The translations under genes were made by a program, and so were the position numbers. A stretch of DNA of 64,000 bases from a bacterium (GTDB lineage: Bacteria; Hinthialibacterota; Hinthialibacteria; Hinthialibacterales; Hinthialibacteraceae), in contig CAXXSM010000022.1 of NCBI GenBank assembly GCA_963663405.2, positions 1-64,000 of the forward strand, in the 5' to 3' direction. Position 1 is the stretch's first letter. Every line of letters starts with the position of its first letter. The notes below the pieces were generated by a model. It saw only the letters and a program-made list of their open reading frames with translations. It had not been told where the DNA came from and ran no database searches. This document shows, in pieces, positions 15,758-51,432 of this stretch.

Positions 15758-15782
15758 TTCACCTCGAAAAATGTTTTTTTTT

Positions 15783-15865
15783 CATGGCCGGTTTCACGAC
15801 TCGCTCCCCTTTGCTTCATTCGTGACCAGTTAAAAAACAAAGGATCGACACGTCCACGTTCACTC
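15783..15865 (-). promoter_or_regulatory. Conserved structured 5' leader, copy 1
   Basis: 83-nt segment closely matching 17694-17776, about 25-30 nt upstream of both paralog starts. Confidence 0.55.
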
Positions 15866-30978: not shown

Positions 30979-31074
30979 GGAGGTGACGGGGGCCCGGTGG
31001 CTCCTGCGGTCTTCAAAACCGTTATGTCGCGTTGTCGCGTGATGGGTGGGTTCGACTCCCATTCACCTCCGCCA
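30979..31074 (+). tRNA. selC: tRNA-Sec (anticodon UCA)
   Basis: 8-bp acceptor GGAGGTGA/TCACCTCC, G discriminator + CCA, long D stem, anticodon loop CT-TCA-AA (TCA at 31013-31015), long variable arm, T arm GTGGG-TTCGACT-CCCAT; 96 nt; close to selA/selD. Confidence 0.96.
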
Positions 31075-33262: not shown

Positions 33263-33378
33263 TGTAAACGAACCACCCCGCTCAACCGTTGATTTTAAAA
33301 AGAGGATCAACGAAACTGAACGAGAAAAGGTGGGGCGTTCGGCGCCGCAAACAACAAATTAATCACATCAATAAAACA

Positions 33379-34749
33379 ATGAATAAATCACCTGATCCAC
33401 GAAGTCTGCTGCCTTCCGTCGATCGTGTCTTGAACAGCATGAGCGCGGCGCCGGATATGGAGCGTTTTTCCCATCAGCAAAAAGTTGACGCCACTCGGTT
33501 GGTTTTAAACCAGATGAGGGTGGATTGGAGCGGCGAGACAGGTCCATCCAGCGAAGAAATCGCTCAGAAAGCCGCGTCTCTCTTAAAAGCGCGGGACCGG
33601 TCCGGTATCCGGCGCGTCGTGAACGGCGCCGGAATCATTTTGCATACAGGCCTGGGCCGGGCCGTCGTTCCCCGCGAGGCGATGGACGCGATCGCGGAAC
33701 TGGATGGATACTGCAGCCTGCAGATCAATTTAGAAGATGGTTCACGCGGCCGGCGCGACGCTGTGATTGAGGAAATCTTACAAACGATAACAGGAGCTGA
33801 AGCGGCCACGGTGGTGAATAACAACGCGGCGGCGACGCTGCTTGTATTGGCGGCGTTATGCCAGGGGAAAGAACTGATCGTCTCGCGCGGGCAATTGATT
33901 GAGATCGGCGGCTCATTCCGCCTGCCTGATGTGATCGCGCAAAGCGGGACGGTGATGGTGGAGGTGGGAACGACCAATAAAACCCATCTGCGGGATTACG
34001 CCAACGCGATCACGGAAGAAACGCGCGTCCTGCTGCGCGTCAATCCGAGCAATTACCGCATCATCGGTTTCAGCCAATCCATCTCAACCGCTGAGCTGGT
34101 GACGTTGAAAGAAGGGCGGGATCTGATTGTCGTAGACGATCTTGGCTGTGGCGCGCTGGTTGATCTAAGCCTGTATGGACTGCCGAAAGAACCTACCGTG
34201 CAGGATAGTATCGCGGCGGGCGCGGACGTGGCGCTGTTCAGTGGGGATAAACTGATTAGCGGACCACAATCCGGGATTATTGTGGGTAAGAAAGAATACA
34301 TCGCCAAAATTCGGAAACATCCCTTAGCGAGGGCGATGCGGGTGGGTAAATTCACCATCGCGGCGCTGGAAGCGACTTTGAAATTGTTCCTCAATCCCGA
34401 TACATTGGTGGAAAACCATCCCACTTTACGCATGATCTCCATGAAACTTCCCACCTTGCGTCAGAAAGCGCAGTTTCTCGCGCAACGGCTTTCTTCCATT
34501 ATTCCATGCCAGGTCATCGAGGAACAAAGCGCCTGCGGGGGCGGCTCGCTGCCGGACTGCCCGCTCGATACCGCGGTTGTATCCATGCGTCATGAACGGC
34601 TGAATGCGGCTGAATTCGCGCAGCGCCTGCGCATGGGAGAGCCATCCATCATCACCCGCGTTCAGAATGAGGCTGTTCTGATTGATGTACGGACATTGCA
34701 GGATGGCGACGAAGAGCGAATTGAAGCCGCGATCAAAAAACTCAAATGA
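33379..34749 (+). CDS. selA: L-seryl-tRNA(Sec) selenium transferase
   Basis: LPSVD, VVNGAGIILHTGLGRA, VNNNAAA, SRGQLIEIGGSFRLPD, EVGTTNKTH, FSGDKL (PLP Lys). Confidence 0.97.
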   Translation: MNKSPDPRSLLPSVDRVLNSMSAAPDMERFSHQQKVDATRLVLNQMRVDWSGETGPSSEEIAQKAASLLKARDRSGIRRVVNGAGIILHTGLGRAVVPREAMDAIAELDGYCSLQINLEDGSRGRRDAVIEEILQTITGAEAATVVNNNAAATLLVLAALCQGKELIVSRGQLIEIGGSFRLPDVIAQSGTVMVEVGTTNKTHLRDYANAITEETRVLLRVNPSNYRIIGFSQSISTAELVTLKEGRDLIVVDDLGCGALVDLSLYGLPKEPTVQDSIAAGADVALFSGDKLISGPQSGIIVGKKEYIAKIRKHPLARAMRVGKFTIAALEATLKLFLNPDTLVENHPTLRMISMKLPTLRQKAQFLAQRLSSIIPCQVIEEQSACGGGSLPDCPLDTAVVSMRHERLNAAEFAQRLRMGEPSIITRVQNEAVLIDVRTLQDGDEERIEAAIKKLK

Positions 34750-34782: not shown

Positions 34783-35994
34783 ATGAATTCAGATTGCTCT
34801 GGAAATCCACCTCAACCACAACCATCCGAATGCTGTCAAACGAAGTCCACCTGCGCGCAAAGCCCGATAGCGCGTTTTGAAAACATGATCCCCAACGCGC
34901 TGGCGTTCGCGCAGGACGCCAAAGCCAAGGGGCAGAAAATCGCGGGGATCTTCTGTGAATATGCGCCGCGTGAATTGTTCTTCGCCGCCGGGATGGTTCC
35001 TATTTGCATGTGCGGAGGACAACAATCCACCATTCCCGAAGCGGAGACGGAACTTCCCAGCAATCTCTGTCCAGTGATTAAATCCAGCTATGGCCACCAT
35101 CTCAAAAAATCCAATCCTTTCTTGGAAATGTCCGATCTCATCGTCGCGGAAACGACATGCGACGGGAAGAAGAAAATGTATGAGTTGATGAGCCACGGCC
35201 GCAACATCCACGTCATGGAATTACCCCAAAAACCAGATGAACAAACCGCCTTCAATCATTGGCTCAACGAACTCCATCTTTTGAAAGAGAAGATCGAAGA
35301 AGTAACAGGAAAGACAATCGATCGGGAAGCGTTATTAAGCGCGATTGAGAGAATGAATGAAGAACGCGATCTGCGGCGGGAAATCGCCTATCTAGCCTCT
35401 GAGAATCCACCCTTGGTCACTGGCAAAGAAGCGCTGCTCGCGAAAAGCAGCGTCTCGCTGATCCCCTGTGACATAGCGGGATACAAGAAAATTCTCGAAT
35501 GGGCGAAAAACCGGCCCAGCCCCTACAATGGACAGCTCCGGATTTTAATGACAGGCGTTCCCCATCCGCACGGAGCCGAGAAAGTGATGGAGATCGTGGA
35601 GGAGTGTGGCGGCGCGATCGTCGCGCAGGAAAACTGCACAGGACTCAAACCGATCATGGACAACGTAGTTACCGACAGCGATCTAATGGAAAATCTCGCC
35701 CGGAAGTATTTTGATCTGCCCTGCTCCTGTATGACCCCCAATCAAGGACGAACCGATTTGCTCAACCGGCTTATAAATGATTTTAAACCGGATGGTATGA
35801 TCGATCTTGTTTGGCAGGCCTGTCATACCTACAACATCGAAGCGGAATTGATCCGCCGGGAAGCGCGGACACGCTGGAATCTTCCCTATCTGAAATTAGA
35901 AACCGATTATTCCCCCTCCGACCGGGCGCAGTTAACAGTGCGTGTGGAGGCGTTTTTGGAATTATGCCGGTCGAATGGATCGAAGAAATCTTGA
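34783..35994 (+). CDS. 2-hydroxyacyl-CoA dehydratase family / double-cubane cluster (DCCP-like) protein
   Basis: GIFCEY.P.E, CMCGG, NLCPVIKSSY, ETTCDGKKKMYE, ENCTG, CSCMTPN, QACHTYNIE, ETDYS. Confidence 0.85.
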   Translation: MNSDCSGNPPQPQPSECCQTKSTCAQSPIARFENMIPNALAFAQDAKAKGQKIAGIFCEYAPRELFFAAGMVPICMCGGQQSTIPEAETELPSNLCPVIKSSYGHHLKKSNPFLEMSDLIVAETTCDGKKKMYELMSHGRNIHVMELPQKPDEQTAFNHWLNELHLLKEKIEEVTGKTIDREALLSAIERMNEERDLRREIAYLASENPPLVTGKEALLAKSSVSLIPCDIAGYKKILEWAKNRPSPYNGQLRILMTGVPHPHGAEKVMEIVEECGGAIVAQENCTGLKPIMDNVVTDSDLMENLARKYFDLPCSCMTPNQGRTDLLNRLINDFKPDGMIDLVWQACHTYNIEAELIRREARTRWNLPYLKLETDYSPSDRAQLTVRVEAFLELCRSNGSKKS

Positions 35995-36188: not shown

Positions 36189-37841
36189 ATGCGGTTTCCT
36201 GAAAAACGTAAAACCATTATGGCGCGATCGATCGCGTTGGGGCATTGCGTCTGCAATCCGAAATTGAAATGCCCCTGCCCATCACTGATTAATGAAAACT
36301 TATGTCCCTGCGCGGGGGAACGGCGCGATCCCCCGAAAGGCCCGGTCCGTCTGACCGAATATGTGCGCAAGGTTGGCTGCGCGTCGAAAATCAATCACCG
36401 CGATCTGCATACCGTCTTGGCGCAGCTGCCCACATTTGACGATCCCCATGTAATCTTAGGTGTAGCGGCGGGCGATGACGCCGGTGTCTACGACATTGGC
36501 GGCGATTACAACATCGTTCAGACGGTTGACGTTTTCTCGCCGGTGATTGATGACGCGTATACGTTTGGGCAGATCTGCGCCGCCAATTCTGTCAGTGATA
36601 TTTACGCGATGGGAGGGCGGCCGGTCTGCGCGCTATCGATCATCGGCTTTCCCATTGAGGATCTGCCCCATGAGGTGATGGCCGAAATCCTGCGCGGCGG
36701 GATTGAGACGCTGCGGGAAGCGAATGTCAGCGTGATCGGCGGACACAGTATCAACGATGAAGAAATCAAAGGCGGCTTCGCAGTAACAGGATTGATCAAC
36801 GGCGGCGGAAGCGTAACGGTCAGCGGCGCGCGTCCAGGCGACCGGCTCGTTCTCACCAAACCTATTGGCACAGGCGTCATCGCTTTTGCCAACCAGATCG
36901 CCCGCGCGTCAGAAGACGCCCTTAAATTGATCGGTCAAATCATGGCCGGACTCAACAAAGACGCGGCGGAACTCATGATCGCGCATGGCGCGCATGCCTG
37001 CACCGACGTGACAGGCTTCAGCCTGTTAGGTCATCTTACCGAAATGACACGCCACAGCGGCGTGAGCGCCCGAATCGACACCGCCACCATACCATTCCTC
37101 GCCGAAGCGATCGGGGGCGCCCGGCAGGGAATCATTCCCGGCGCGATCGAACGCAACAAAGAAGCGTTCTCACAAGGCATTTCCACCGATGGCGAAGAGG
37201 ATGCGCTGCTCAATCTACTCTATGACGCTCAAACCTCCGGCGGTCTTTTAATCGCTTTGCCAGAAGAGGGAGTGGGGCCTTTTATCAAAGCGATGCGGTC
37301 ACGCGGTCATGAAGCGGTTTCGGAAATCGGAACCATCGTGGAACCAGAAGAATCACTCATTCATGTCACCCTTAACGAATCCACAAATCTCGTGGGTGTC
37401 TATCAAGAGATCCCCCCGAAAGAAAAACCGGAACCCATTCAACCCAGCGCCGAACCACTCGCCTGTTGTGAGAATCCTCCCAGCGCGGAGGTTAAAAAAT
37501 CCGTTACAGATAGCGCCTCAAAACCGTCCCTATCTATGGCGCTTGGATCTCCCTCCGCGGAGCAAACGGCATCCAGCGAAGCGTTTAAACAATTCATGAA
37601 AAGCGTCAATACGCCAGGGAGCCTCGATGCGCGGATGAAGCGGTTGTTGAACGTCGCCTTAGCCACAGCGCAGCGGTGCGAACAATGCCTGCAGATCCAT
37701 ATCGAACACGCGTTGTCTGAAGGGATCTCCCGCGGCGAGATCGATGAAGCCGCCTGGCTGGGTATTTCATTCGCTGGCGCCCCGGCGAAATTGTTCTACG
37801 AAGAAACATGGCGGGAATTGGATAGGAAAGATAAGTCATAA
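36189..37841 (+). CDS. selD: Selenophosphate synthetase (Cys-type) with N-terminal Cys-rich module and C-terminal AhpD/CMD-like domain
   Basis: LTEYVRKVGCASKI, DDAGVY, QTVDVFSPVIDD, AANSVSDIYAMGG, GGHSI, LTKPIGTG, TDVTGFSLLGHL, DAQTSGGLL. Confidence 0.95.
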   Translation: MRFPEKRKTIMARSIALGHCVCNPKLKCPCPSLINENLCPCAGERRDPPKGPVRLTEYVRKVGCASKINHRDLHTVLAQLPTFDDPHVILGVAAGDDAGVYDIGGDYNIVQTVDVFSPVIDDAYTFGQICAANSVSDIYAMGGRPVCALSIIGFPIEDLPHEVMAEILRGGIETLREANVSVIGGHSINDEEIKGGFAVTGLINGGGSVTVSGARPGDRLVLTKPIGTGVIAFANQIARASEDALKLIGQIMAGLNKDAAELMIAHGAHACTDVTGFSLLGHLTEMTRHSGVSARIDTATIPFLAEAIGGARQGIIPGAIERNKEAFSQGISTDGEEDALLNLLYDAQTSGGLLIALPEEGVGPFIKAMRSRGHEAVSEIGTIVEPEESLIHVTLNESTNLVGVYQEIPPKEKPEPIQPSAEPLACCENPPSAEVKKSVTDSASKPSLSMALGSPSAEQTASSEAFKQFMKSVNTPGSLDARMKRLLNVALATAQRCEQCLQIHIEHALSEGISRGEIDEAAWLGISFAGAPAKLFYEETWRELDRKDKS

Positions 37842-37971
37842 CTTGAAACTCAATCGCTCGATCCGTCGTATTAGTAAGAGTAAGGGCGGGCAAATCGATT
37901 TGAATGCCCCATTCCTGTTTGGGAATGATAAAACCAAGTGGTTACTCTTAAATCGAAATGGAGGAAAGCGG

Positions 37972-39849
37972 ATGTACAATCGAGTGAGTGTCTTGTATGT
38001 AATTACAGTTATGAGTTTTTGTCTTGCGGGTGGAGCCGTTCTCTTGATGGCGGCTTCGGATGTAGAAACAGTAACGATAGGGGCAACGGTTCCAGACATT
38101 GAAGCGGATAGTATTGAAGGGCTTCCAGTCTCTTTCCGTCCGCCGGAGGGAAAGATTCTGCTCGTTCAGTTTATGGATTCAAGCGCAGATCAAGCCGATG
38201 AATCCATCCGGGATCTAATCATTCTCTATGGACGTTTCCGTGAGAGCGGTTTACATCTTTTAAATGTGTTTATGGATACTAACGAGGATCAAGTCATCCG
38301 TTTTTCAACACGGTGGCAGGTCCCCTGGGCGCAGGTGTTGGACGCGGATATGGAAGGCGAAAGAGCCTCTCAAGTTTTCGGCGTTAAAGAATTCCCCTGC
38401 AATTTCCTGCTCGATTCAGATGGCAAGATTCTCGCATTAAATCTCACTGGAGAGAACGCGCACAACTTAATCGCCGAACAGCTGAACGTCTCACTCGATT
38501 CCCTGCCAATGCCCGAAGCGCCCACACCGATCTCCGAAGGAGGATCGAGCAACCGGGATGCGATAATCGCTACGGCGTCCCGCGTTCCAACAATTAATCT
38601 GCTGGGCACGAAACAAGAACGCGAAGAAGTGGAAGCCTGTAAAGAATACCTTCGGAAAATCAGCCTCGCTCTCACGGCTTACAAGCAGGATCATGATGGG
38701 GAGCCGCCGAATTGGCTTCACGAACTGTTTCCCAAATACCTCCAAGATGAGAAAATTCTTATATGCCCTTGCCCTTTGGCTAGATCCGTCCAGACACAAT
38801 TAAAACTCGATCCAGAGATGAGATGCAGTCATTTATACGAATTTGCTCCATCGGAATTGACCGGGGGAGAGTATTCATCCTATAGGGAATGGAAAAAATC
38901 TCAACTTAACCAGTTTGGAGACAAAACGCCTATTGTGCGTTGTCTGTACCATTCGAGACCTTTGAGTTTATCGTATGGAGGCGAAATCTATTTCAGTTCG
39001 CAGGTTTGGGAAAATGATTTTCCGCAGGGCTGCAGCATCCATGATCCTGACGCGAAAACTCGAAAAGCAATGATGGACATCGCGCTCGCGCTGGATCGAT
39101 ACAAGAAAGAGAATAACACGATACCAGATGAACTTAGGGATCTTTATCCGAAATACATCCGAAACGAGACATTTTACCTCTGTCCCAGCACTGAACAGCC
39201 ATTTTCCTATCAGTTTTCGAAAAAATCCGGTTTGCGGGAATGGAAAACAGAACAGCTAAAGATCTACGGCGGTTATGTGCCCATCGTCCGGGCTCGGGGG
39301 GTTCTTAGAAACGGGAATGTCATCAATCTGGCGTACAATGGCGAGATCTACGAAAGCCCCAGTGTTTGGGAGACTCTCTTCATTCGTGACAGAGCCGCGA
39401 TACTGAAATCAACGGCCGCCGATCGAAAAGCCATTTCCGCACAATCCCCAGAAATAAGCAAGGCGGAAATAGATATGCGTTCGTTATCGGTCGCGCTCGA
39501 ATCCTTTTTTATTGATAACAATACCTACCCTCTTCCACTAGAAGGGCAGTCCATCGACAAAGTAGGGATTAAAACCAGTTCCAGAACGATTCGTCTGACT
39601 ACACCCGTCCGGTACATCACTAAAATACCCAAAGATCCGTTTTCGAAAGAATCCGGTTACTACCATTATCACAGTGATGGGAAAAATTTTTACATTCTGG
39701 CCTCTGACGGCCCCGATCAGAAGCCGGATTTCGATGTGAAACAATACGATCCGGGCAAAGGTTCGAAGAAAAATGATCTCAAAACCTTTACCTACGATCC
39801 CTCAAACGGATTAAACAGCCGAGGTGACCTTTTCAAAGTAGGACCTTAA
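37972..39849 (+). CDS. Membrane-anchored protein: CxxC-less redoxin-like domain, two pseudopilin-like repeats, GspG-C-like domain (paralog 1)
   Basis: GGAGG RBS; IGATVPDI…GKILLVQF…FP.NFLLDSDGKI; C..YLRKI..AL..Y..DH.G..P..L..L.PKYL; TTPVRYI..IPKDPF…ASDGPD…YDPSNG..S.GD. Confidence 0.65.
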   Translation: MYNRVSVLYVITVMSFCLAGGAVLLMAASDVETVTIGATVPDIEADSIEGLPVSFRPPEGKILLVQFMDSSADQADESIRDLIILYGRFRESGLHLLNVFMDTNEDQVIRFSTRWQVPWAQVLDADMEGERASQVFGVKEFPCNFLLDSDGKILALNLTGENAHNLIAEQLNVSLDSLPMPEAPTPISEGGSSNRDAIIATASRVPTINLLGTKQEREEVEACKEYLRKISLALTAYKQDHDGEPPNWLHELFPKYLQDEKILICPCPLARSVQTQLKLDPEMRCSHLYEFAPSELTGGEYSSYREWKKSQLNQFGDKTPIVRCLYHSRPLSLSYGGEIYFSSQVWENDFPQGCSIHDPDAKTRKAMMDIALALDRYKKENNTIPDELRDLYPKYIRNETFYLCPSTEQPFSYQFSKKSGLREWKTEQLKIYGGYVPIVRARGVLRNGNVINLAYNGEIYESPSVWETLFIRDRAAILKSTAADRKAISAQSPEISKAEIDMRSLSVALESFFIDNNTYPLPLEGQSIDKVGIKTSSRTIRLTTPVRYITKIPKDPFSKESGYYHYHSDGKNFYILASDGPDQKPDFDVKQYDPGKGSKKNDLKTFTYDPSNGLNSRGDLFKVGP

Positions 39850-40263: not shown

Positions 40264-42174
40264 ATGAGTAAACGAATTAGTGTTTTTTATACGGTCACAG
40301 TTCTAAGTCTCTTTCTCTCAGGCGCCGCGGTTTTATTGATCTCGGCGCAGGATATGGAAACAGTATCCATTGGCTCAACGGTTCCCGATATTGAGGCCTA
40401 TAGTATTGAAGGGCTTCCGGTCTCTTTCCACCCACCGGAGGGAAAGATTCTTCTCGTTCAATTTATGAAATCAAGCGATGAACAGGCGGATGAATGCATC
40501 CGGGACCTAATCGTCCTTTATGGGCGTTTCCGGGAAAGTGGTTTGCTTTTATTGTGCGTGTTTATGGATACGGATGAAGACCAGGTAGTCCGTTTTTCAA
40601 CCCGATGGCAAGTCCCCTGGCCGCAGGTGTTGGACTCAGATGTGGATGAAGAGAGACCATCACAAGTTTTTGGTGTCAAAGAATTCCCTGCCAATTTCCT
40701 GCTTGATTCCACTGGAAAGATTCTTGCGTTGAATTTGACTGGTGAGAGCGCCCATAATGCGATCGCCGAACAACTGAATGTTTCCCTCGACTCTCTGCCG
40801 GTTCCTGAAGCGCCTTCCCCCATTTCCGAAGGAGGGCCGGGAAGCCGGAATGTGGTTATGACAACAGCTCCATCCGTTCCAAGCGTTCCAAAAGTGAATC
40901 TGCTGGGCACAAAAAAGGAGCGTGAAGAAGCGGAAGCCTGCAAAGAAAACCTCCGGAAAATCAGCCTTGCGATTACGGCCTACAAACAAGATCACAACGG
41001 GGAGCCGCCAAACTGGCTGCATGAACTGTTTCCTCAATACCTTCAGGATGAAAACGTTCTCTTATGTCCAAGCGATCCCACGCATGAAACCCGCTTTGCG
41101 TATTTGATCGATAAAAAAATGAAGTGCGGCTATTTATACGAATTCGCACCCGCCCCCAATTCGACGGGATGGAATAATCAGCCCTGGCGGGATTGGAAGA
41201 AATCTCAACTCCATGAGTATGGTGACAAAACGCCACTCGTCGGCTGTTATCATCATTCCCGCAAATTGAATCTATCGTATGGCGGAGAGATCTATTTCAG
41301 TTCCGAGGTCTGGGAAAATGATTTTCCACAGGGTAGCACAATCAATGATCCCGACGCAAAAACCCGGAAGAAACTGATGGACATCGCAGTTGCGCTGGAT
41401 CGATATAAAAAAGAGAAGAAAACCGTTCCCGATGAGCTGAAGGACCTTTATCCAAAATACATCCGAAACGAGACTTTTTACCTCTGCCCGGCCACTAATG
41501 AGTCCTTCTCCTATCAATTTTCGAAACAATCAGGATTGCGGGATTGGAAAAAAGAACAGTTGAAGATCTACGGCGGTTACGTGCCTATCGTCCGCGCGCG
41601 CGGAGCGCTTAAAAACGGGAACGTCATTAACTTGGCGTATAATGGGGAGATCTACGAAAGCCCCAGTGTCTGGGAGACTTTATTCATTCGTGACAGCGCC
41701 GCGATACCAAAAACGACGGCGGCTGATCGAAAAACCACTTCTACACGATCCACACGAACCATGGAAATTGCCCGCACGGAAGCGGAAATGCGCATATTAT
41801 CAAACGCGCTGGAATGTTTCTTCATCGATAACAATACATACCCATTTCCACTGGAAGGGCAAACGATCGATAAGGCCGGTATAAAAATCGGTTCCGGTTC
41901 GAGAGCGAGATATCTTCGCTTAACCACACCCGTCGCTTACATCTCAACAATACCCAAAGATCCATTCTCGAAAGAGTCCAACGCCTACCGCTATCACAGC
42001 GATGGGAAGAATTATTACATCCTGGCCTCTGACGGCCCGGACCGGAAAATCGATTTCGATCTGAAGAAATTTGATCTCAGCAAAGGATCAAAAAACGACG
42101 ATCTCACACCCTTTACCTATCATCCCTCGAATGGATTGACCAGCCAGGGGGATCTTTTCCGGGTTGGACCGTGA
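40264..42174 (+). CDS. Redoxin-like/pseudopilin-like multidomain protein (paralog 2)
   Basis: Colinear and highly similar to 37972-39849; ends TGA TAG. Confidence 0.7.
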   Translation: MSKRISVFYTVTVLSLFLSGAAVLLISAQDMETVSIGSTVPDIEAYSIEGLPVSFHPPEGKILLVQFMKSSDEQADECIRDLIVLYGRFRESGLLLLCVFMDTDEDQVVRFSTRWQVPWPQVLDSDVDEERPSQVFGVKEFPANFLLDSTGKILALNLTGESAHNAIAEQLNVSLDSLPVPEAPSPISEGGPGSRNVVMTTAPSVPSVPKVNLLGTKKEREEAEACKENLRKISLAITAYKQDHNGEPPNWLHELFPQYLQDENVLLCPSDPTHETRFAYLIDKKMKCGYLYEFAPAPNSTGWNNQPWRDWKKSQLHEYGDKTPLVGCYHHSRKLNLSYGGEIYFSSEVWENDFPQGSTINDPDAKTRKKLMDIAVALDRYKKEKKTVPDELKDLYPKYIRNETFYLCPATNESFSYQFSKQSGLRDWKKEQLKIYGGYVPIVRARGALKNGNVINLAYNGEIYESPSVWETLFIRDSAAIPKTTAADRKTTSTRSTRTMEIARTEAEMRILSNALECFFIDNNTYPFPLEGQTIDKAGIKIGSGSRARYLRLTTPVAYISTIPKDPFSKESNAYRYHSDGKNYYILASDGPDRKIDFDLKKFDLSKGSKNDDLTPFTYHPSNGLTSQGDLFRVGP

Positions 42175-42229: not shown

Positions 42230-44278
42230 GTGGTTTCTTACAGAACACTATTCATCCGGACGGCGGTCCTTCTTTTCCTAACCAATGGATTTTTTAGTTC
42301 AATGGAACTCTTTGGACAGGAAGGAAATTTGAAGGTGGGGGATATTTTCCCCGAATTTGATGTCGAGAGCATCGAAGGGCTTCCTATTTCCTTCCGTCCG
42401 CCGGATGGAAGTCTGTTACTGGTTATCATCTGGGATACCAATTCTCCACGGGCTGAAGACGCGGCCCGCGATACAATTGTTCTCTATAAACGGTTTCACG
42501 ATTCGGGATTCGATGTTGTTGGCATCTGTACCAATCTATCGGAAGGAGGTGTGGAGGAATTCTCCACACTCTGGACAATTCCCTGGCCCCAGGCGATGAA
42601 CGAGGATATCGAAGGGGCGGATACAACCGAACAACTCGGTATCCTCGAACTGCCCATCACGTATCTGCTCGATTCAGACGGGCGGATCCTCGCGATCTCA
42701 CCAAAGGGTGACCGGGCGCATGCGGCCATCGCCGGTTATCTTGGAGTATCACTCGACGATCTCCCCAAACCTGCGATGCCCGCAAAACGGACCAAACCAT
42801 CATTTGAACCGAGTGGAATGACACAAACACCTAGAGAAGGCGCGTATTCACTCTTGGGATCATTGGAAGAGCGTGAACGGGTAGAACCATGCCGGAGCAA
42901 TCTACGGCAAATTGGAATCGCGCTGACGAGTTATCAACTCGATCATGAAGGGGAATGGCCTAACTGGCTGTCGGACCTGTATCCAAAGTATCTGCAGGAT
43001 GAATCAATTCTGCTCTGCCCCAATCATCCCTCCGCCACTGTGTATCGGGGATTGATCGATCCCAAAATGAAATGCAGTTATGTCTACGAATTCGCGCCGA
43101 TTGAGTGGGATGGCGCCATTTACCGGGATATCCAAAAAGCGAAATTGGAAATCTATGGGGATAAAGTTCCCGTCGTGCGGTGCCTCAAATGCCTTGAAGA
43201 CGGGCGCGCGCTCAACTTGAGCTACGGCGGTGAGATCTATTTAAGCGGAGAGATTTGGGAAGACGATATGCCGACGGACAACGACCTCGAAGACGCCGCC
43301 TCCGAGATTCGTCAGCAGTTTCGCCAAATCGCCGCCGTCATCCATCGCTACAAGAAAGAACACGGGAAAATCCCGGATGAACTGGACACGCTTCATCCCG
43401 ATTACATCCCGGATGTAAAAACACTATCCAATCCCGTCACGGGTTGGATCTATTCCTATGAATTCAGCCCGAACATCCCCAATCCATATACGGAGGATGG
43501 TGAAACGCTTTTTGATTACCGGACGAAACAGATGGAAGAATTCGGCGGGTATGTGCCCATGATCCGCGCCGCGGGTATCCTCGACAAGCAGAATGTGATC
43601 AATCTGTCGTATCATGGAGAAGTCTGGCAAAGCACGATGAATTGGGAAGGAGATCTTCATTCCAGCACGGGACCAATGGTCTGGCTGCCAGGTGATCCAC
43701 CGGGAAAACAGATCGATCCCGATCATCAACTGGAAAACTGGCGCGGGAATGTGGCCAGAGGAACCATAACGATTCAAAAAGATGAGCAGATCCGCTCAAT
43801 CTGCGGCTCGTGGCAGATGGATAAGGAGATGATCCAGCAAACGGATATTCACGCCAAACCTGCGGCCTTGATCTTTGAACCGGTTATCGAAAAAGGAGAA
43901 ATCCGGCTTCGCGCCCGTGTAATGGATGGAAAGAACGGATTCCGGATTGTGTTTGGATACAAACCGACAGAAGAACACTACGCCTGGACCATCGGCGGAC
44001 AAGAGAACAAAGTCAACACATTGGATAAACGCTCTACCCTGCGGGAGATCAAATTTTACAATGTTCTGAATGATCCGGAGCCCTACAACGTCCAACAGAA
44101 AATTTGGTATACAATCCGTTTGCTAGTCGATGCGGATAAGCGCACAGTGGTAGGTTATCTGAACGGAGAGAAACGATTGTCTATTACACTGGAGGAAGAA
44201 ACGTTGAAAGGCCGGTTCGGCCTGACGGTCAATGAAACTATCGCCGAATTCGACCAGATTTCCATAACCGGAAAATAA
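42230..44278 (+). CDS. Redoxin-like/pseudopilin-like protein with a different C-terminal beta-sandwich (DUF1080-like) domain (paralog 3)
   Basis: Shares SIEGLPISFRPP, PITYLLDSDGRI, CRSNLRQIGIAL..Y..DH, LNLSYGGEIY; GTG start. Confidence 0.62.
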   Translation: MVSYRTLFIRTAVLLFLTNGFFSSMELFGQEGNLKVGDIFPEFDVESIEGLPISFRPPDGSLLLVIIWDTNSPRAEDAARDTIVLYKRFHDSGFDVVGICTNLSEGGVEEFSTLWTIPWPQAMNEDIEGADTTEQLGILELPITYLLDSDGRILAISPKGDRAHAAIAGYLGVSLDDLPKPAMPAKRTKPSFEPSGMTQTPREGAYSLLGSLEERERVEPCRSNLRQIGIALTSYQLDHEGEWPNWLSDLYPKYLQDESILLCPNHPSATVYRGLIDPKMKCSYVYEFAPIEWDGAIYRDIQKAKLEIYGDKVPVVRCLKCLEDGRALNLSYGGEIYLSGEIWEDDMPTDNDLEDAASEIRQQFRQIAAVIHRYKKEHGKIPDELDTLHPDYIPDVKTLSNPVTGWIYSYEFSPNIPNPYTEDGETLFDYRTKQMEEFGGYVPMIRAAGILDKQNVINLSYHGEVWQSTMNWEGDLHSSTGPMVWLPGDPPGKQIDPDHQLENWRGNVARGTITIQKDEQIRSICGSWQMDKEMIQQTDIHAKPAALIFEPVIEKGEIRLRARVMDGKNGFRIVFGYKPTEEHYAWTIGGQENKVNTLDKRSTLREIKFYNVLNDPEPYNVQQKIWYTIRLLVDADKRTVVGYLNGEKRLSITLEEETLKGRFGLTVNETIAEFDQISITGK

Positions 44279-44422: not shown

Positions 44423-45949
44423 ATGAAGTGTGCCAAGTCTTCCCTCCTGGGATTGGTTTTCATCGCCGCCTCCGCGTTTCTCTTCGCGGATACCGCCTCC
44501 GCGGTTTCCTGCAAACTGGAGTTGAAACGGCTTGAAGATAAATCTTCAATGGTACGGAGCGCGCAGGATGAGGACTATATCCTGCGGAGGGTAAGCAGAC
44601 AGTACTTTTCATGGCGTCCGGACCGGGATACCATTCCCGAATTTACAAACGCTGTGAAAAAAGAACCGCCGAAGTATGAGTATGAAAATCCTTACAAAGG
44701 CGTGATGACGTTGGGTTCCGATAAATACTTATTTGTATTGGATTCGAGCGATATCAACACGAAAGGATTTCATAAACTCTACTTCGACCGCAATCTCAAC
44801 GGCGATTTGACGGATGATTCCGTCATTGAAGCCATGGCGCTGCCAACCGGCGTTAACTTCGGCCCCGGCTCGATGCGCCGGGAATTTCCCCGGCAGGACC
44901 TGATGGTGAACGTGGATGGCAAGAAGCATGATTATTCGGTCTTTTTCGAAGCCTATTCCGACACACGGGATGGAGGAAATCTTCGGTACGCCTACACGCA
45001 AGCCGGCGCCGGCGCCTATCGCAAGGGAGAAGTGGAATTGGAGGGCAAAACGCATTCCATTTTCCTGCTCGATTTCAACAGCAACGGCCGTTTTGACGAT
45101 GTGACGACTGTAAACGAAAATGTCCAATACAGCAATGGCCGGATTTATCCTTCGCAGGGCGACCGGATCTTGCTTGATTTTAGCGCGCAGAACACCGATC
45201 CCTCGTATTACAATCTGACGGGCCGTAAAGACCGTGTGCCTGTCGCCAAACTGGTTTTCGTGAATGGGAAGTATTACGAGATGACGGTCTCTCCCTCCGG
45301 AGATTCCATCGAACTCACCCCATCCACAACGCCAACCGGTTCGATTGAGAACTCGAACGATGTGTTTGACGTCGCCCTTTACAACAAAGAGGGCGTGCTC
45401 AAACTGAACGGCAAGAAAGGCGACAAAATTTCTGTGCCGGAAGGTGAATGGAAGCTGCTCGAATATACGATCGATCTAACCGACTCCTCCAACACATCTG
45501 GACGGCAAGGCTGGACTTTGATCGCCGCTTCCGGAACGAAGAATTGCCCAACCGTGAAAGTAGAGAAAGGGAAAACCGTTGAATTTCCCTTCGGCAGCCC
45601 CTTCAAACCTCTCGTTCAGACGCAGCCCATGGGCCGCTCGAACGGTCAGGTGGAACAAGTGCGGCTGAGTCTGGAATTTACAGACTGTTCCGGCGCGATC
45701 TGCACGAATCTCTACGTCAACGGAAACCGCCCTCCCGATCCCACCTTCGCGATCGCCACACCCAGCAATGAAATCGTGGAGCGCGGCAAGTTTGAATATG
45801 GCTGAGGCTTTACCTGTTCGTACACATGGCGTGTACCTTCTAAACTGCAAGATGAATACCGCGTCCATGTCCGCATGAATGCAGGACCTTTCAAAGTCGA
45901 TAAAAAAGCATACAGCGTGATCAAATCATCAACACTGAAAGGATTGTAA
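44423..45949 (+). CDS. Putative secreted selenoprotein, paralog 1 (508 aa; Sec461 at TGA 45803-45805; FEYG-U-GFTC)
   Basis: AGGAGG RBS, signal peptide; the frame continues past TGA as GFTCSYTWRVPSKLQDEYRVHVRMNAGPFKVDKKAYSVIKSSTLKGL-TAA; SECIS-like hairpin; lies between selD and selB. Confidence 0.88.
45820..45836 (+). promoter_or_regulatory. Putative bacterial SECIS hairpin (paralog 1)
   Basis: GTACAC-ATGGC-GTGTAC starting after a 14-nt spacer from the UGA. Confidence 0.8.
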
Positions 45950-45992
45950 GCGCCTCTTTCAGCAGGACTTACCTATGCGCGGAATAATCATA

Positions 45993-46021
45993 ACGGGGCG
46001 GGACTTGAAATCCCGCCCCGT
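45993..46021 (+). terminator. Terminator-like hairpin
   Basis: ACGGGGCGGGA/TCCCGCCCCGT stem 44 nt after the read-through stop; weak T tail. Confidence 0.65.
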
Positions 46022-46120
46022 GTTCTCTCACAGGTGAGGAAATATGGTATTAGGGAAAGACGAAATACCAACCGAATCCAAATCGAAAAGTCAATTCGAT
46101 AGAAAGGACGGTTAGAGATT

Positions 46121-47650
46121 ATGAACTCCTGCAAGCGTTCCCTCTTTGGATTCGTTCTCATCCTTGGCGCCCTGTTTCTCATCCTTGATCCCGCACACGG
46201 TGCGACCTTCAAACTGGAGTTGAAACGGTTTGAAGATAAATCTTCACTCATACTAAGTAATGAAGAGGAAAGAATTCTTCAAAAAGTAAAAACCCAGTAT
46301 TTACCGTGGGATCAAGAGCGTTCTATGACACCGGCTTTCATAAAAGCCGTAAAAAAAGAACCCACTGTATATGAATCGAATACACTGTACAGAGGTGTGA
46401 TCCAATTCGGATCGGATCAATATGGTTTTGTATTGGATTCAAGCAATATCAAAAGGGAAGGTTTCAACAAACTCTATTTCGACCGCAATCTCAATGGCGA
46501 TTTGACGGACGATCCCATTATCGAAGCCAAGGCTTTGCCAAAAGGCGTACATTTTGGTTCTGGTATAATACTGCGGGAATTTCCCCGTCAGGATCTTACG
46601 GTGAACGTAGGAGGGAAATCGTACGATTATTCATTCTTTTTGACTGTATCATCCGATGAACGAGGTCCAATCCGGGGATCGCTGCAACACGCCCGCGCCT
46701 ACATCACCCCCGGCGCCTATCGCATGGGGAAAGTCGTATTGAATGGCAAAACGCATTCCATTTGCCTGCTTGATTTCAACAGCAACGGCCGTTTTGATGA
46801 TGTTACGGTAATACATGATAGAGTCAATAAAAGAACTAGCCGGATTTATTACACGCCTGGGGACCGGCTTCTACTCGATTTCAACCCGAAGAACGCCGAT
46901 CCTTCCTATTACAATCTGACGGGACGCGAAGACCGGGTTCCCGTTGCCAAGTTACTGTTCGTGGACGGGAAATATTATGAGATGACGGTCTCTCCATCGG
47001 GAGATTCTATCGAACTTATCCCCTCCACGGCGCCCACCGGTTTTATTCAGAACTCAAACGAAGTGTATGACGCCGCTCTCTACGGCGATCAGGGGATTCT
47101 CAAATTGACAGGGAAAAAAGGCGATCGAATTCCCATCCCGGCAGGAGAATGGAAACTATTGGAATATACGATTGATCTGACCGATCCAGAGAAAAGATTC
47201 CGGATCCCACACGCTTTGACGCTGATCTCCGCTGCAGGGACAAAGAACTGTCCATCGGTAAAAGTAGAGAAAGGTAAAACCGTCGAATTCCCATTTGGCG
47301 GCCCCTATAAACCTCTCGTCCAGGTGAGTTCTGTCGGTTTTGGAACAGCCATCCCCCAAGCGCGGTTGAGTCTGGCATTCACGGACTGCGCCGGCGCGAT
47401 TTGTACGAATCTATATGTAAAAGGAAACCGGCCGCCCAATCCATCGTTTACAATCGCTACGCCTAGCAATGAAATCGTGGAGCGCGGCAAGTTTGAATAT
47501 GGCTGAGGCTTCACCTGCGCGTACATATGGAATGTACCATTAAAACTTCATGATGAATACCACTTCCATGTCCAAATGAAAGCGGGACCATTTGAAGTCG
47601 ATAAAAATTCATACAGCGTGATTAAATCCTCAATGCTGAAAAGGAAGTAG
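46121..47650 (+). CDS. Putative secreted selenoprotein, paralog 2 (509 aa; Sec462 at TGA 47504-47506)
   Basis: Continues as GFTCAYIWNVPLKLHDEYHFHVQMKAGPFEVDKNSYSVIKSSMLKRK-TAG. Confidence 0.86.
47521..47537 (+). promoter_or_regulatory. Putative bacterial SECIS hairpin (paralog 2, compensatory U-A pair)
   Basis: GTACAT-ATGGA-ATGTAC at the same spacing. Confidence 0.8.
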
Positions 47651-47817
47651 GTTTCTATTTCATGAAGAGGAAACAATGCAAGTATTACTCAAATGGGACT
47701 CAATTTTAATTCCCATTACATCTCCACCCTCAGGCAGGAGAGTATATAATAGGAAAGGTCATACAACCAGCCGTTCCTATCGAAACATCAATCCAATCGA
47801 AAGGATGGTAAAAATTC

Positions 47818-49347
47818 ATGAAGTTCGGCAAACGAATCTTTTTAGGATTCTTTCTCCTTCTCGTCGCTGCGTTTCTCTTCACGGATACTGCGAACGCAGT
47901 GACCTGTAAATTGGAATTGAAACGGTTTGAAGACAAATCATCAATGTATGAGACCGCTGGAGATGAAGAACCAATCCTGCGGAGAGTGAGAGGGCAGTAC
48001 CTGCGATGGCGGCGAGATCAGGCCACGACGGCGGATTTCGTCGAAGCCGTTAAAAAAGAACCGAAGTATGAGTCAGATATCCTGTACCGGGGTGTGATTA
48101 CCTTAGGTTCGGATCAATACGGTTTCGCGTTAGATTCAAGCGATATCATAAAAAATGGATTTCACAAATTCTATTTCGACCGCAATCAAAATGGTGATCT
48201 GACAGACGACGCCGTCATCGAAGCCATGCCATTGCCAAAAGGCGTCAACTTCGGTCCCGGCTTTATGCAACGCGAATTCCCCCGGCAGGACATGACAGTT
48301 AACACCGATGGCAAGAAGTATGATTATTCATTCTTCTTACTTGTGTATTCCGACACGCAGGGACAATCCGATGGATCACTGCGATACGCCTCCGCGCAGC
48401 TCAGCACAGGCGTGTATCGAAAAGGGGAAGTGGAACTCGACGGCCAACAACATACCATTCACTTGCTCGATTTCAATTGCAACGGCCGTTTCGATGATTC
48501 AACCACAATACGCGACGATATCCGGAACGATAATGGACGGATCTATCAAACACACGGCGATCGAATCATGCTTGATTTCAATGTTGAAAACGCCGATCCC
48601 GCGTATTACAATCTGACGGGACGGAAAGACCGTCTCCCCGTTGAAAAACTGTTATTCGTCAATGGGAAATATTATGATCTGACGGTTTCTCCATCGGGCG
48701 AATCTCTTGAATTCACTCCATCCAAGGCGCCACTCGGTTCGATTCAAAACAAGAACGAAGTGTTTGAATTCGCCCTCTACAACGATCAGAGTGTGCTCAA
48801 ACTGTCTGGCAAGAAAGACGATCCAATTCCCATCCCAGAAGGGGAATGGAAACTGCTTGAATACACAATCAATCTCACCGATCCAGCAAAAAGTTCCCAG
48901 GGCCGGCGATCGTGGACATTGCTCTCCGCCGCAGGGACCACGAACTGCAAACCGGTGAAAGTGGAGAAAGGGAAAACAGTTGAATTCCCCTTTGGCGGTC
49001 CCTACAAACCTCTAGTGCGGGTAAATCCGATGGGTTCAAACAACCAAGTGGATCAAGCGCGAGTAAGTCTAGAATTTATTGACAATGTAAGCGCGATCTG
49101 CACCAATCTCTACGTCAACGGAGACCGGCCGCCTGATCCAACTTTCGTCATCGCCACGCCCAATAATGAAATCGTGGAGCGCGGCAAGTTTGAATATGGC
49201 TGAGGCTTTACCTGTTCGTACACATGGCGTGTACCGACAAAACTTGAAGATGAATACCGTGTTCACGTTCGCATGAAAGCAGGGCCTTTTGAAGTTGATA
49301 AAAAAGCCTATAGCGTTATCAAACCTTCGATGCTTAAATTCAACTAA
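47818..49347 (+). CDS. Putative secreted selenoprotein, paralog 3 (509 aa; Sec462 at TGA 49201-49203)
   Basis: Continues as GFTCSYTWRVPTKLEDEYRVHVRMKAGPFEVDKKAYSVIKPSMLKFN-TAA. Confidence 0.88.
49218..49234 (+). promoter_or_regulatory. Putative bacterial SECIS hairpin (paralog 3)
   Basis: GTACAC-ATGGC-GTGTAC, extendable by TGTT/GACA below a C-C mismatch. Confidence 0.8.
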
Positions 49348-49385: not shown

Positions 49386-49422
49386 AAAACGGGGCGGGAT
49401 TGAAAATCCCACCCCGTTTTTT
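49386..49422 (+). terminator. Rho-independent terminator
   Basis: AAAACGGGGCGGGATT-GAA-AATCCCACCCCGTTTTTT; homologous to 45993-46021. Confidence 0.8.
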
Positions 49423-49478
49423 AATCCGAATGAAAAACCGGCGAATAGAATCCTTCCCACAGGAGAATTCTCAAAACG

Positions 49479-51432
49479 ATGAAAACAGGCAAACGAAAAC
49501 CATTCAAACCTGCCCGCAATCTCCCCCCACCCCTCAACGTCACCATTGGTGTGGCCGGTCATATTGATCATGGGAAGACCGAATTGGTGAAAATGTTAAC
49601 CGGCTGCGACACCGACCGGTTGAAGGAGGAAAAAGAACGGGGCATGTCCATCGAACTGGGATACGCGCCCCTGTCATGTCGGCGCCAACCGGGTGGGGAT
49701 CGTGGATGTGCCGGGTCATGAGCGTTTTATCCGCAACATGGTCGCCGGGGCCACCGGGATGGACATCACGTTGCTGGTCATCGCCGCTGATGACGGCGTG
49801 ATGCCGCAAACTCGCGAGCATCTCGATATCGCGCAACTCCTTGGCGTTCAGCGTGTGATCACAGCGATTACGAAAACCGATCTCGTCTCCCCGGATCGGA
49901 TTGAAGAAGTCCGGCGGCAAATTGAAACATTCTTAGAAGCGACCCGGTACGCAGGGGCTTCTATCACTCCCTGTTCATCCGTAACCGGTGAAGGATTGAC
50001 TGAACTGCGTCAACAGATGGACGCGGCGGTTCAAGCTGTCGAACGGAAAAAAACCAGTGGAATGTTCCGGCTGCCAATTGACCGGATCTTCACTTCCGAG
50101 GGGCATGGTGTTGTCGTTACGGGTATCGCGATTTCCGGCAGCGTGAAAGCCGGTGAGATGGTAGACCTGCTTCCATCTGGAAAAACCGGCCGTGTGCGCA
50201 GTTTGCAGGTTTATCTCGGCGATGCGGAAGAAGGCATCGCCGGACAATGTGTGGCGCTCAACTTGACGCAAATCGGAAAGGACGAATTCACACGCGGCGA
50301 CGTTCTCGCATCTCCAGGACGGTTCTCCGCTTATTATCGTTTTACCGCGCGGGTGCAATCTTCGCTCTTTTTAGAATCTCCGCTGCGGAATTCCGCCCGG
50401 ATCCGATTTCATACGGGAACATCGGAAACACGGGGAAAATTGCGGCTGATGAACGATGACTCCCTCGAACCGGGTCAAGAGACATTCGCTCAGATCGAGT
50501 TGGATGAACTCGTTCCTGCGTTTCTTCACGACCGGTTCATCATCCGGCTGGAATCGCCGCCCCGCACCGTCGCGGGTGGAACCATAATCGAATGCGGAGG
50601 TTTTCGCCGTAAACGTTTTCATGAGCCTGTTTTGCGTCAACTGCGGAATCGCTGGGACGCGTTATGTAATAATACCAAGTTAATTGAGATTCTGCTTGAA
50701 GAGACGCCGTTCCACTCTCAATCGATCGAAGAACTCGCGAAAGCGATAGGCGTCCCCAATTCTGAAGCGCAACAGTTGGTTCAAACGATTATCCAGAAAC
50801 AGAACGCGATCACGTTGAAAGAGAACCGTATTGTCTCATCTTCAGGATTGCGGAAAGCCGCTAATTATACGCTGGACACGTTGAAAAAACTGCACACCGC
50901 CCATCCCACCCGCTTTGCGTTTACAAAAGACGAAATCCGCGCCGGGATGCAAGAAGGTGAGGACCTGATTGACCCGGCTCTCGCGCGGCTTCTTAATGAA
51001 CACCGCGCGATTCTCTCCGGCTCTTCATACCGTGACGCCGAAGCGGTTGACGCGGATCCCCAAACGCTCGCGCTGGCGAAGCAAATCGAACGTCTTCTCT
51101 TCGAAGAGAAATTTAAAACTTCCTCCCCCGCGCAACTGGCGGAGAAACTGAGACGCCCTGTGGCCGCCATCGAATCCACATTCAAATATCTTGTTGAAAA
51201 AGGCGCCGCGATCCGGCTGGCAGAAACGGTCTATTTGCACAACAAGCATGTGGAATGGGCGAAAGAACAACTTATCAAAGCCATTCAACGGGATGGATTT
51301 TTTGAAACGCACCTTTTCAAAACCGTCATCGGAAGCAGCCGGAAATACGCGATCCCCCTATTGGATCATTTCGACGCCACGGGAGTCACCCGCCGCATTG
51401 GCGGCAAGCGTTATTTACAAGAGAAGAAATAA
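49479..51432 (+). CDS. selB: Selenocysteine-specific elongation factor SelB; one apparent +1 indel in the C run at 49668-49671
   Basis: [66 protein letters not shown]-terminal [17 protein letters not shown] winged helix. Confidence 0.93.

Follow-up and report, generated by a model that had tools for sequence, protein, structure and literature searches.

Tandem genes beside the selenocysteine machinery of a Hinthialibacterota bacterium are predicted to encode members of a widespread family of exported selenoproteins

Three tandem genes, here called A, B and C, were analysed in a stretch of 64,000 nucleotides (the window) from a bacterium of the phylum Hinthialibacterota (GenBank assembly GCA_963663405.2, contig CAXXSM010000022.1, positions 1–64,000 of the forward strand). 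Each contains an in-frame UGA codon that is very probably read as selenocysteine (Sec), which would make the three products selenoproteins; judged from the sequences compared here, the probability of this reading is roughly 0.9. The assignment is based on the conservation of the UGA among relatives, a compensated hairpin downstream of it, purifying selection on the codons that follow, natural homologs with cysteine at the same position and a setting among the genes for Sec synthesis and insertion. The three proteins belong to a large, widespread family for which we could find no match among the described selenoprotein families. It would be a new family of a class, the selenoproteins, that is itself well known. 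Coordinates are collected in Table 1.

Under translation table 11, the open reading frames (ORFs) of A, B and C span about 461 codons and end in a common peptide, ...NEIVERGKFEYG, immediately before the TGA. When the TGA is read through, each frame remains open for exactly 47 further codons; the positions of the three TGA codons and the conserved codons behind them agree with those given in a preliminary description of this DNA. The paralogs share 65% protein identity. Their post-UGA tails differ mainly by synonymous changes, with Nei-Gojobori ratios of nonsynonymous to synonymous substitution (dN/dS) of 0.34 (A/B), 0.11 (A/C) and 0.12 (B/C), compared with 0.22–0.25 for the 60 codons 5' of the UGA in the same pairs. 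The tails are thus under purifying selection, in line with the many synonymous changes noted in the preliminary description, and the remaining two frames are closed and full of stops. A stretch of 44 nt across the UGA is the same in all three genes (45767–45810, 47468–47511 and 49165–49208; columns 28–71 of alignment A1). Because the relatives do vary synonymously in this stretch, its identity in A, B and C was probably produced by gene conversion between the tandem copies. The Logan contigs break at these 44-nt repeats.

Terminators had been proposed to follow the later stops instead of the UGA, and this is confirmed in part. A G+C-rich hairpin of 13 pairs (45993–46021) lies after the TAA of gene A; its T-run points the other way, and the terminator scan therefore assigns it to the minus strand. 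The hairpin after gene C (about 49389–49424), with one mismatch and then TTTTTT, was seen by eye and is absent from the scan list, and no clear hairpin was seen 3' of the TAG of gene B. A contig of 451 nt from an RNA library (22 differences) covers the UGA of gene A; it is not proof of transcription, since such libraries can contain DNA.

Relatives were collected with a word-indexed protein search (419 at E ≤ 0.001 among 8000 candidates scored) and with an exhaustive HMMER search of 50%-identity representatives (1203 found, 252 of them at E ≤ 1e-30). Endings were tallied for the 242 homologs listed by these searches. Database proteins stopping exactly at the Sec site account for 228 of them, with the ending F-x-[YFW]-G in 217 and variant residues at the same place (e.g. 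FSYG or LEYG) in 11, which is the truncation by gene callers that the preliminary description had foreseen. Twelve proteins continue past the site, and two are fragments or carry unrelated tails. The homologs listed come mostly from Planctomycetota. At their truncated length, the relatives are named 'hypothetical protein' by NCBI and JGI, and in the ESM Atlas the homolog P0040 matched nothing but unnamed clusters of 'hypothetical protein', most of them again from Planctomycetota.

The same site was compared at the DNA level in 96 loci (overlaps included), 17 from the window's phylum and 79 from other genomes. The latter are mostly from Planctomycetota (Pirellulales, Thermoguttaceae, Planctomycetaceae and Phycisphaerae), with a few labelled Omnitrophota, Hydrogenedentales or unclassified. 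A tblastn search with the last 109 residues as query gave 129 alignments, four of which end short of the site. The Sec codon is TGA in all 125 alignments that cover it, and TAA or TAG in none. Homology extends about 40–47 residues past the TGA in these alignments, opening with G-F-T-C-x-Y-S-W-R-V-P and continuing through ~35 more conserved residues; the tails of relatives are mostly 39–71 codons long. Removal of duplicates left 113 distinct 180-nt contexts, three of which are the window's own. The Cys-for-Sec homologs that had been envisaged at the outset do exist, as three natural full-length proteins (P0132, P0180 and P0189) with Cys in the Sec column. In an alignment of nine natural full-length homologs, this column contains three Cys, two Arg, one Val, one Pro, one Gly and one gap. 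The second Cys of the motif is kept only by P0037 among these nine and is lost in the three Cys-form homologs.

A hairpin of the selenocysteine insertion sequence (SECIS) type begins 14–15 nt 3' of the UGA, inside the coding sequence. It was evaluated in a gap-free alignment (A3) of 112 distinct 54-nt stretches from the UGA onward, in which columns 17–24 pair with columns 28–35. Standard pairs occupy 93.1% of the cells, compared with a mean of 85.7% after shuffling; five of the eight pairs are changed on both sides (shuffled mean 2.4), as are 41 individual cells (shuffled mean 3.6), and the covariation score of 0.196 (shuffled 0.069) was reached by none of 500 shuffles. With the partners slid by 1–3 columns, only 21–56% of cells are paired. 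The stem is kept through coordinated amino-acid changes (Y..V, H..V with GUG, A..G, S..R and L..Q), with compensatory codon pairs UAC...GUA, CAC...GUG, GCC...GGC, UCG...CGA, UUG...CAA and ACA...UGU. In the passages of a 2026 review on bacterial selenoproteins that are drawn on here (PMC13188914), the bacterial SECIS model has a stem of 4–16 pairs, a loop of 3–9 nt and a spacing of 16–37 nt. The family hairpin fits this model as given there, with a stem of 6–8 pairs, a loop of 3–5 nt and a UGA-to-loop distance of 21 nt. In 92 of the 112 sequences the closing pair is G-C; the loop of these is UGG and has a G within its first two positions, as a rule in that text requires. Only this comparative test of the hairpin was decisive. 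Folding of the three UGA regions as single sequences was uninformative (z-scores −0.85 to 0.69), and a scan of the whole window against Rfam at gathering thresholds found no SECIS family, only the tRNA-Sec and one riboswitch.

In bacteria, SelB carrying Sec-tRNA(Sec) binds such a hairpin and places Sec at the UGA. The genes for this machinery are all at hand. The tRNA-Sec, SelA and SelD genes lie 5' of A, B and C and the SelB gene directly 3', all four within 20 kb. The preliminary description was therefore right that all four flank the three genes, with the correction that SelB is frameshifted in the assembly. By the usual route, SelB with Sec-tRNA(Sec) would bind the hairpin 3' of the UGA and insert Sec, and the products would be 508–509 residues long rather than the ~461 given by gene callers. 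No further Sec codons were found in the neighbouring genes: other TGA stops can be extended by only 0–29 residues, except that of SelA, whose frame past the TGA simply enters the next gene. The expected co-occurrence of the UGA form with sel genes was also observed. Among 35 species genomes of the window's phylum, 11 have a strong SelA match; the family occurs in eight of these and in none of the remaining 24 genomes. In five of these eight carriers, the family and SelA are on the same contig, 2–12 kb apart. Outside the phylum, SelA is present in 47 of the 48 carrier genomes tested.

Table 1. Positions of the three genes, their recoding hairpins, the Sec machinery and related forms (window coordinates unless a locus is named)
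Feature	Position	Strand	Description	Basis
Gene A	44423–45949	+	508-aa exported protein (from ATG), predicted; Sec residue 461 at TGA 45803–45805; stop TAA	ORF reading, read-through translation
Gene B	46121–47650	+	509-aa paralog; predicted Sec residue 462 at TGA 47504–47506; stop TAG	ORF reading, read-through translation
Gene C	47818–49347	+	509-aa paralog; predicted Sec residue 462 at TGA 49201–49203; stop TAA	ORF reading, read-through translation
SECIS-type hairpin, gene A	45820–45836	+	6-pair stem, apical AUGGC, within codons for S-Y-T-W-R-V-P	alignment columns 18–34
SECIS-type hairpin, gene B	47521–47537	+	one pair C-G replaced by U-A (both sides changed relative to A and C)	alignment
SECIS-type hairpin, gene C	49218–49234	+		alignment
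tRNA-Sec	30979–31074	+	anticodon tca	ARAGORN; Rfam 69.2 bits, gathering score 47
SelA	33289–34749	+	selenocysteine synthase; ordinary TGA stop	PF03841, E 4.2e-137, model positions 1–366 of 367
SelD	36189–37841	+	Cys type; N-terminal Cys-rich extension; C-terminal CMD/AhpD-like CxxC domain	domain search
SelB	49479–51432	+	split into frames 49479–49721 and 49693–51432	ORF reading, domain search
Non-Sec remote homolog of the family	31232–33262	+	exported beta-rich part, multi-pass membrane tail	hhalign with the family alignment, probability 95.4%, E 1.9e-8, 300 columns
Membrane-anchored Sec-module forms	L045:905–2446; L043:486–1976; L074:1537–2760; L031:165–1637; L037:4635–6356			
~600-aa form with MPFG-U-GGTC	L036:4636–6489; L074:4743–6548			

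Several observations weigh against reading the UGA as Sec. In nine of the natural full-length homologs the site has neither Sec nor Cys, and the residue is therefore not indispensable to the fold. The three hairpins of the window have six pairs only and A.C or A.A in place of the closing pair, which turns the loop into A-UGG-C/A and departs from a strict form of the early-G rule in the cited text of PMC13188914. Their 60-nt folds (−8.6, −8.1 and −11.0 kcal/mol for A, B and C; z 0.69, −0.02 and −0.34) are no better than those of shuffled sequences. Part of the hairpin conservation is protein-level because the stem overlaps conserved codons, and the shuffle control overstates the significance because the A3 sequences are related. 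One carrier genome, G079, lacks a SelA match; this fragmented metagenome-assembled genome of several hundred contigs shows only a SelB-like N-terminal piece that falls short of the cut-off, and no tRNA-Sec in it passes the gathering score. The SelB frame is shifted in the assembly by an additional C, which makes four at 49668–49671. A related contig from another study, which shows 10 further differences over 1.1 kb, has only three Cs there and an intact SelB frame, and in the best-covering run the contigs break exactly at this C-run, so that the frameshift is attributed to an assembly error or a strain variant.

Two other interpretations of the UGA were weighed against these data. The ends set by gene callers, the unremarkable hairpin energies in the window and the broken SelB would all suit a true stop, with the tail as a separate small gene or 3' RNA element, or with the genes as decaying pseudogenes. 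This is nevertheless highly improbable, since the tail is always in frame, starts directly after the TGA without a start codon and evolves under the constraint described above with its other frames closed. Moreover, the 12 natural homologs run on past the site without a break and three of these have Cys there, the invariable TGA of the 125 alignments is unlike pseudogenes or ordinary stops, and SelB is intact in the related contig. A reading of the UGA as another amino acid, by a reassigned code (Trp or Gly) or near-cognate readthrough, is just as hard to credit. It could draw on P0037, whose Gly falls in or beside the Sec column: alignment by eye puts it in the column, where MAFFT places a gap. 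On the other side, TGA is the stop of eight of the 29 long ORFs in the window, full-length SelA among them, and the final stop of 52 of 111 family genes in relatives; the tRNA-Sec and sel genes are adjacent, and SelA accompanies the family in nearly all other carriers. Cys is also the only residue found more than twice in the Sec column of the nine aligned natural homologs.

Read as selenoproteins, A, B and C have an N-terminus that resembles a signal peptide by eye (basic residues, a hydrophobic run and a small-x-small site), which suggests export through the Sec protein-secretion pathway. In the structure models, Cys stood in for Sec. The AlphaFold2 model of the gene B product (64-row alignment) is all-beta, with a mean predicted local distance difference test score (pLDDT) of 91.9 and a predicted template modelling score of 0.89, and that of the C-terminal 126 residues is an immunoglobulin (Ig)-like sandwich with a pLDDT of 89.7. 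Sec is modelled in a loop between strands 452–457 and 466–471, where the confidence is lower (81 for residues 461–470). Within the motif G-U-G-x-x-C-x-x-x-W, the G, U, G, C and W are invariant in 52 diverse members, whereas the upstream Cys of GE-x-C is not. The DxNxNGDLTDD and DFNSNGRFDD motifs, conserved in the family, may be calcium-binding-like loops, and a redox or metal-binding role of the Sec site may be suggested from the sequence. The GEVED domain is the only match of these loop motifs, a weak one (32 of the 64 members, best E 0.0014).

A fold search with the full model returned only generic multi-domain Ig/FN3 proteins with template modelling (TM) scores of at most 0.16, and the profile of 64 members had no match to PDB sequences at E ≤ 1. 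For the C-terminal domain, the best fold matches are Ig-like sandwiches that include the macroglobulin (MG) domain 2p9r (TM 0.47), the CARDB domain 3idu and C3 MG domains, with TM scores of 0.45–0.49. The Pfam MG2 model (PF01835) matches six of the 52 C-terminal domains (best E 2.9e-6), with no match to the window's own three. The protein is therefore predicted, from sequence and models, to be a chain of beta-sandwich domains with an MG2-like last domain. The likeness to MG2 and CARDB is at the level of fold only, as these Ig-like domains are structural or binding modules without Sec or a reactive Cys loop.

The family was compared with the selenoproteins already described. Table 1 of the 2026 review lists 119 bacterial selenoprotein families and subfamilies, and most known families are thioredoxin-like in fold (PMC13188914). 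The predicted families, as presented in the passages considered, share with the present one a single in-frame UGA, a SECIS hairpin within the coding region, Cys homologs, truncated database entries, restriction to genomes with sel genes and a nearby Cys (cf. UxxC and CxxU). What sets this family apart from most of them is its architecture, a ~500-residue exported beta-sandwich chain that is not thioredoxin-like; none of the rows of that table has G-U-G-x-x-C, a U-x3-C spacing or this architecture. Scans of the three proteins against Pfam and NCBIfam (June 2026) found no model, with NCBIfam searched at E ≤ 1, and the 64 members gave only seven single-member NCBIfam matches (best E 0.033). No selenoprotein model of either library matched A–C, the 64 members or the 52 C-terminal domains, the scope being these two libraries and not families held only as cd or PTHR models; the failure of the preliminary description to recognise a known family is thus borne out. 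The families of Haft and Tolstoy (2025) are reportedly the NF04xxxx rows of the review's table, and the NCBIfam library should cover them. Full-text searches found no paper pairing selenocysteine with Pirellulales or Thermoguttaceae, although supplementary tables outside this scope (Table S9 of PMC4807772, which according to the part of that paper considered gives selenoprotein candidates in two Planctomycetes, and BSepDB Table S2) could list a member.

Two known groups of proteins bear comparison with the Sec domain. DUF1573, a domain often met in exported proteins of Planctomycetota, is a small beta-sandwich. It is listed as a selenoprotein family with a UGC motif (PF07610; Table 1 of PMC13188914), and in both families Sec is close to a Cys; however, the arrangement is U-G-C there and U-G-x-x-C here, and PF07610 has no match at E ≤ 10 among the 52 C-terminal domains or at E ≤ 1 among the 64 full-length members. 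SoxY and SoxZ are likewise periplasmic Ig-like sandwiches. The reactive Cys of the SoxY carrier arm is flanked by Gly, and the Sec of this family, placed between invariant glycines, recalls such arms. There is no sequence relationship, the Sec lies in an internal loop whereas the Cys of SoxY is C-terminal, and no sox genes were seen near family genes. SoxY/SoxZ may serve as an analogy for mechanism, not as evidence of membership.

The order of genes in the window is tRNA-Sec, the non-Sec remote homolog, SelA, a gene for a protein like the D-component of 2-hydroxyglutaryl-CoA dehydratase, SelD, three AhpC/TSA genes, A-B-C and SelB. The beta-rich part of the remote homolog ends in ...FHAW in place of FEYG, and its ORF has no Pfam match. 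The dehydratase-like gene between SelA and SelD (34783–35994) has a Cys-rich N-terminus. The three genes between SelD and A–C (37744–39849, 40264–42174 and 42230–44278) are paralogs that combine an AhpC/TSA (thioredoxin-fold) domain with T2SSG/DUF1559-like pseudopilin regions, with no Cys and no in-frame UGA at the usual active site. Elsewhere in the window, a match to the c-di-GMP-II-GAG riboswitch that barely passes the gathering score (15777–15864, minus strand; 40.3 against 40 bits) lies directly 5' of the minus-strand ORF 13811–15757.

Neighbourhoods were counted in 92 loci with 3-kb flanks. A Fer4_5 (NapH-like) iron-sulfur membrane protein gene adjoins a family gene in 33 of them, mostly in Planctomycetota, and lies upstream on the same strand in 31, the exceptions among adjoining loci being L009 and L021. 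A SelD-CMD fusion gene, with the same C-terminal type as that of the window, is found beside family genes in 14 loci and upstream in 13; the SelD fusions described in the part of Mariotti et al. 2015 considered (PMC4561486) are N-terminal only. The usual order of the SelD loci is SelD, the NapH-like gene and one to three family copies, with L065 (SelD 769–2409) lacking the NapH-like gene. Five large genomes were checked for SelD: three have a single intact copy over the cut-off and two only a broken hit. Planctomycetota also have a second architecture, in which a short exported domain with FEYG-U-GGTC or GGVC is followed by a multi-pass membrane domain of ~290–400 residues; this membrane-anchored form is often encoded between the NapH-like gene and the family genes.

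The function of the Sec–Cys pair can be addressed only tentatively. After export by the signal peptide as a chain of beta-sandwich domains, the protein would present the invariant G-U-G-x-x-C on an inter-strand loop of its MG2-like last domain, and in Planctomycetota the NapH-like iron-sulfur membrane protein, encoded just upstream, would keep the pair reduced. Such a setting, with a selenol beside a thiol on an exported beta-sandwich and the gene of a NapH-like electron-transfer protein ahead of its own, suggests a site outside the cytoplasm for redox reactions or for carrying a chalcogen covalently, a role that we regard as possible, at odds of somewhat more than one in three. The position directly upstream, which the Fer4_5 gene has in 31 of the loci counted, appears to be the usual one for an electron donor to a periplasmic partner, and the NapH/CcoG membrane polyferredoxins with their periplasmic partners may be compared. 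The partner here differs in being a selenoprotein without a cofactor-binding motif, and no NapG, NapA or cytochrome oxidase genes were seen. Counting against this functional step, the fold search with the C-terminal domain gave only generic Ig-like folds, none at E ≤ 0.001, and the window itself has no NapH-like gene (best tblastn match E 0.22).

Two further roles were considered for the same selenoprotein. The pair might be a soft-metal site outside the cytoplasm (e.g. for Cu, Hg, Zn or Cd) used in sequestration, sensing or hand-on, since Sec and Cys are four residues apart on one loop and 3idu, which was solved with two metal ions, is among the top fold matches. The NapH family, moreover, includes CcoG, which is reported to be a cupric reductase. 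Several known selenoprotein families in Table 1 of PMC13188914, as far as it was considered, bind metals. This role is nonetheless unlikely: no metal transporter, chaperone or resistance gene was seen in the window or among the recurrent neighbours, the variable GE-x-C Cys leaves two ligands only, and the Cys-form homologs lack the second Cys. Slightly less likely again is a dedicated system of selenium acquisition or trafficking composed of the SelD-AhpD fusion, the NapH-like protein, the membrane-anchored G-U-G-x-x-C protein and one to three soluble family copies. Here the G-U-G-x-x-C loop would take up selenium outside the cytoplasm as an Se-Se/S adduct, which would be reduced with electrons supplied by the NapH-like protein and then passed inward to SelD. 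The proposal accords with the SelD-CMD genes beside family genes, the extra Cys-rich and AhpD-like CxxC domains of SelD, its single intact or merely broken copy in the genomes checked, the recurrence of the same Sec module in membrane-anchored forms and the non-Sec relative that adjoins the tRNA-Sec in the window. SoxZ (1v8h) is also among the weak C-terminal fold matches (TM 0.36–0.41, E 0.055), but this is the likeness of any Ig-like sandwich. About half of the NapH-like loci have no SelD in the 3-kb flank, and a requirement of selenium for acquiring selenium poses a bootstrapping problem. In addition, sel genes often adjoin their main client without any client role in selenium supply, as in the case of fdhA in the part of PMC4807772 considered. 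The cited text of PMC13188914 knows of no specific high-affinity selenium transport in prokaryotes and calls the specific uptake route unidentified; such a system, if true, would be that route.

If A, B and C and their relatives are selenoproteins, more than 1000 database clusters of 'hypothetical proteins' (1203 representatives at 50% identity) are about 45 residues short and lack their most reactive residue. According to the part of its methods considered, BSepDB restricted its search of 64,000 genomes to known families; surveys of this kind would therefore miss the present family, which may be a principal user of Sec in these lineages. Its genes are often tandemly multiplied and lie beside the only intact SelD in the genomes checked. 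The chemistry of selenoproteins would be widened by an exported beta-sandwich with a Gly-flanked Sec, next to families that are mostly thioredoxin-like, and the SelD and NapH-like neighbours offer a concrete lead, open to testing, towards extracytoplasmic redox chemistry linked to selenium or sulfur.

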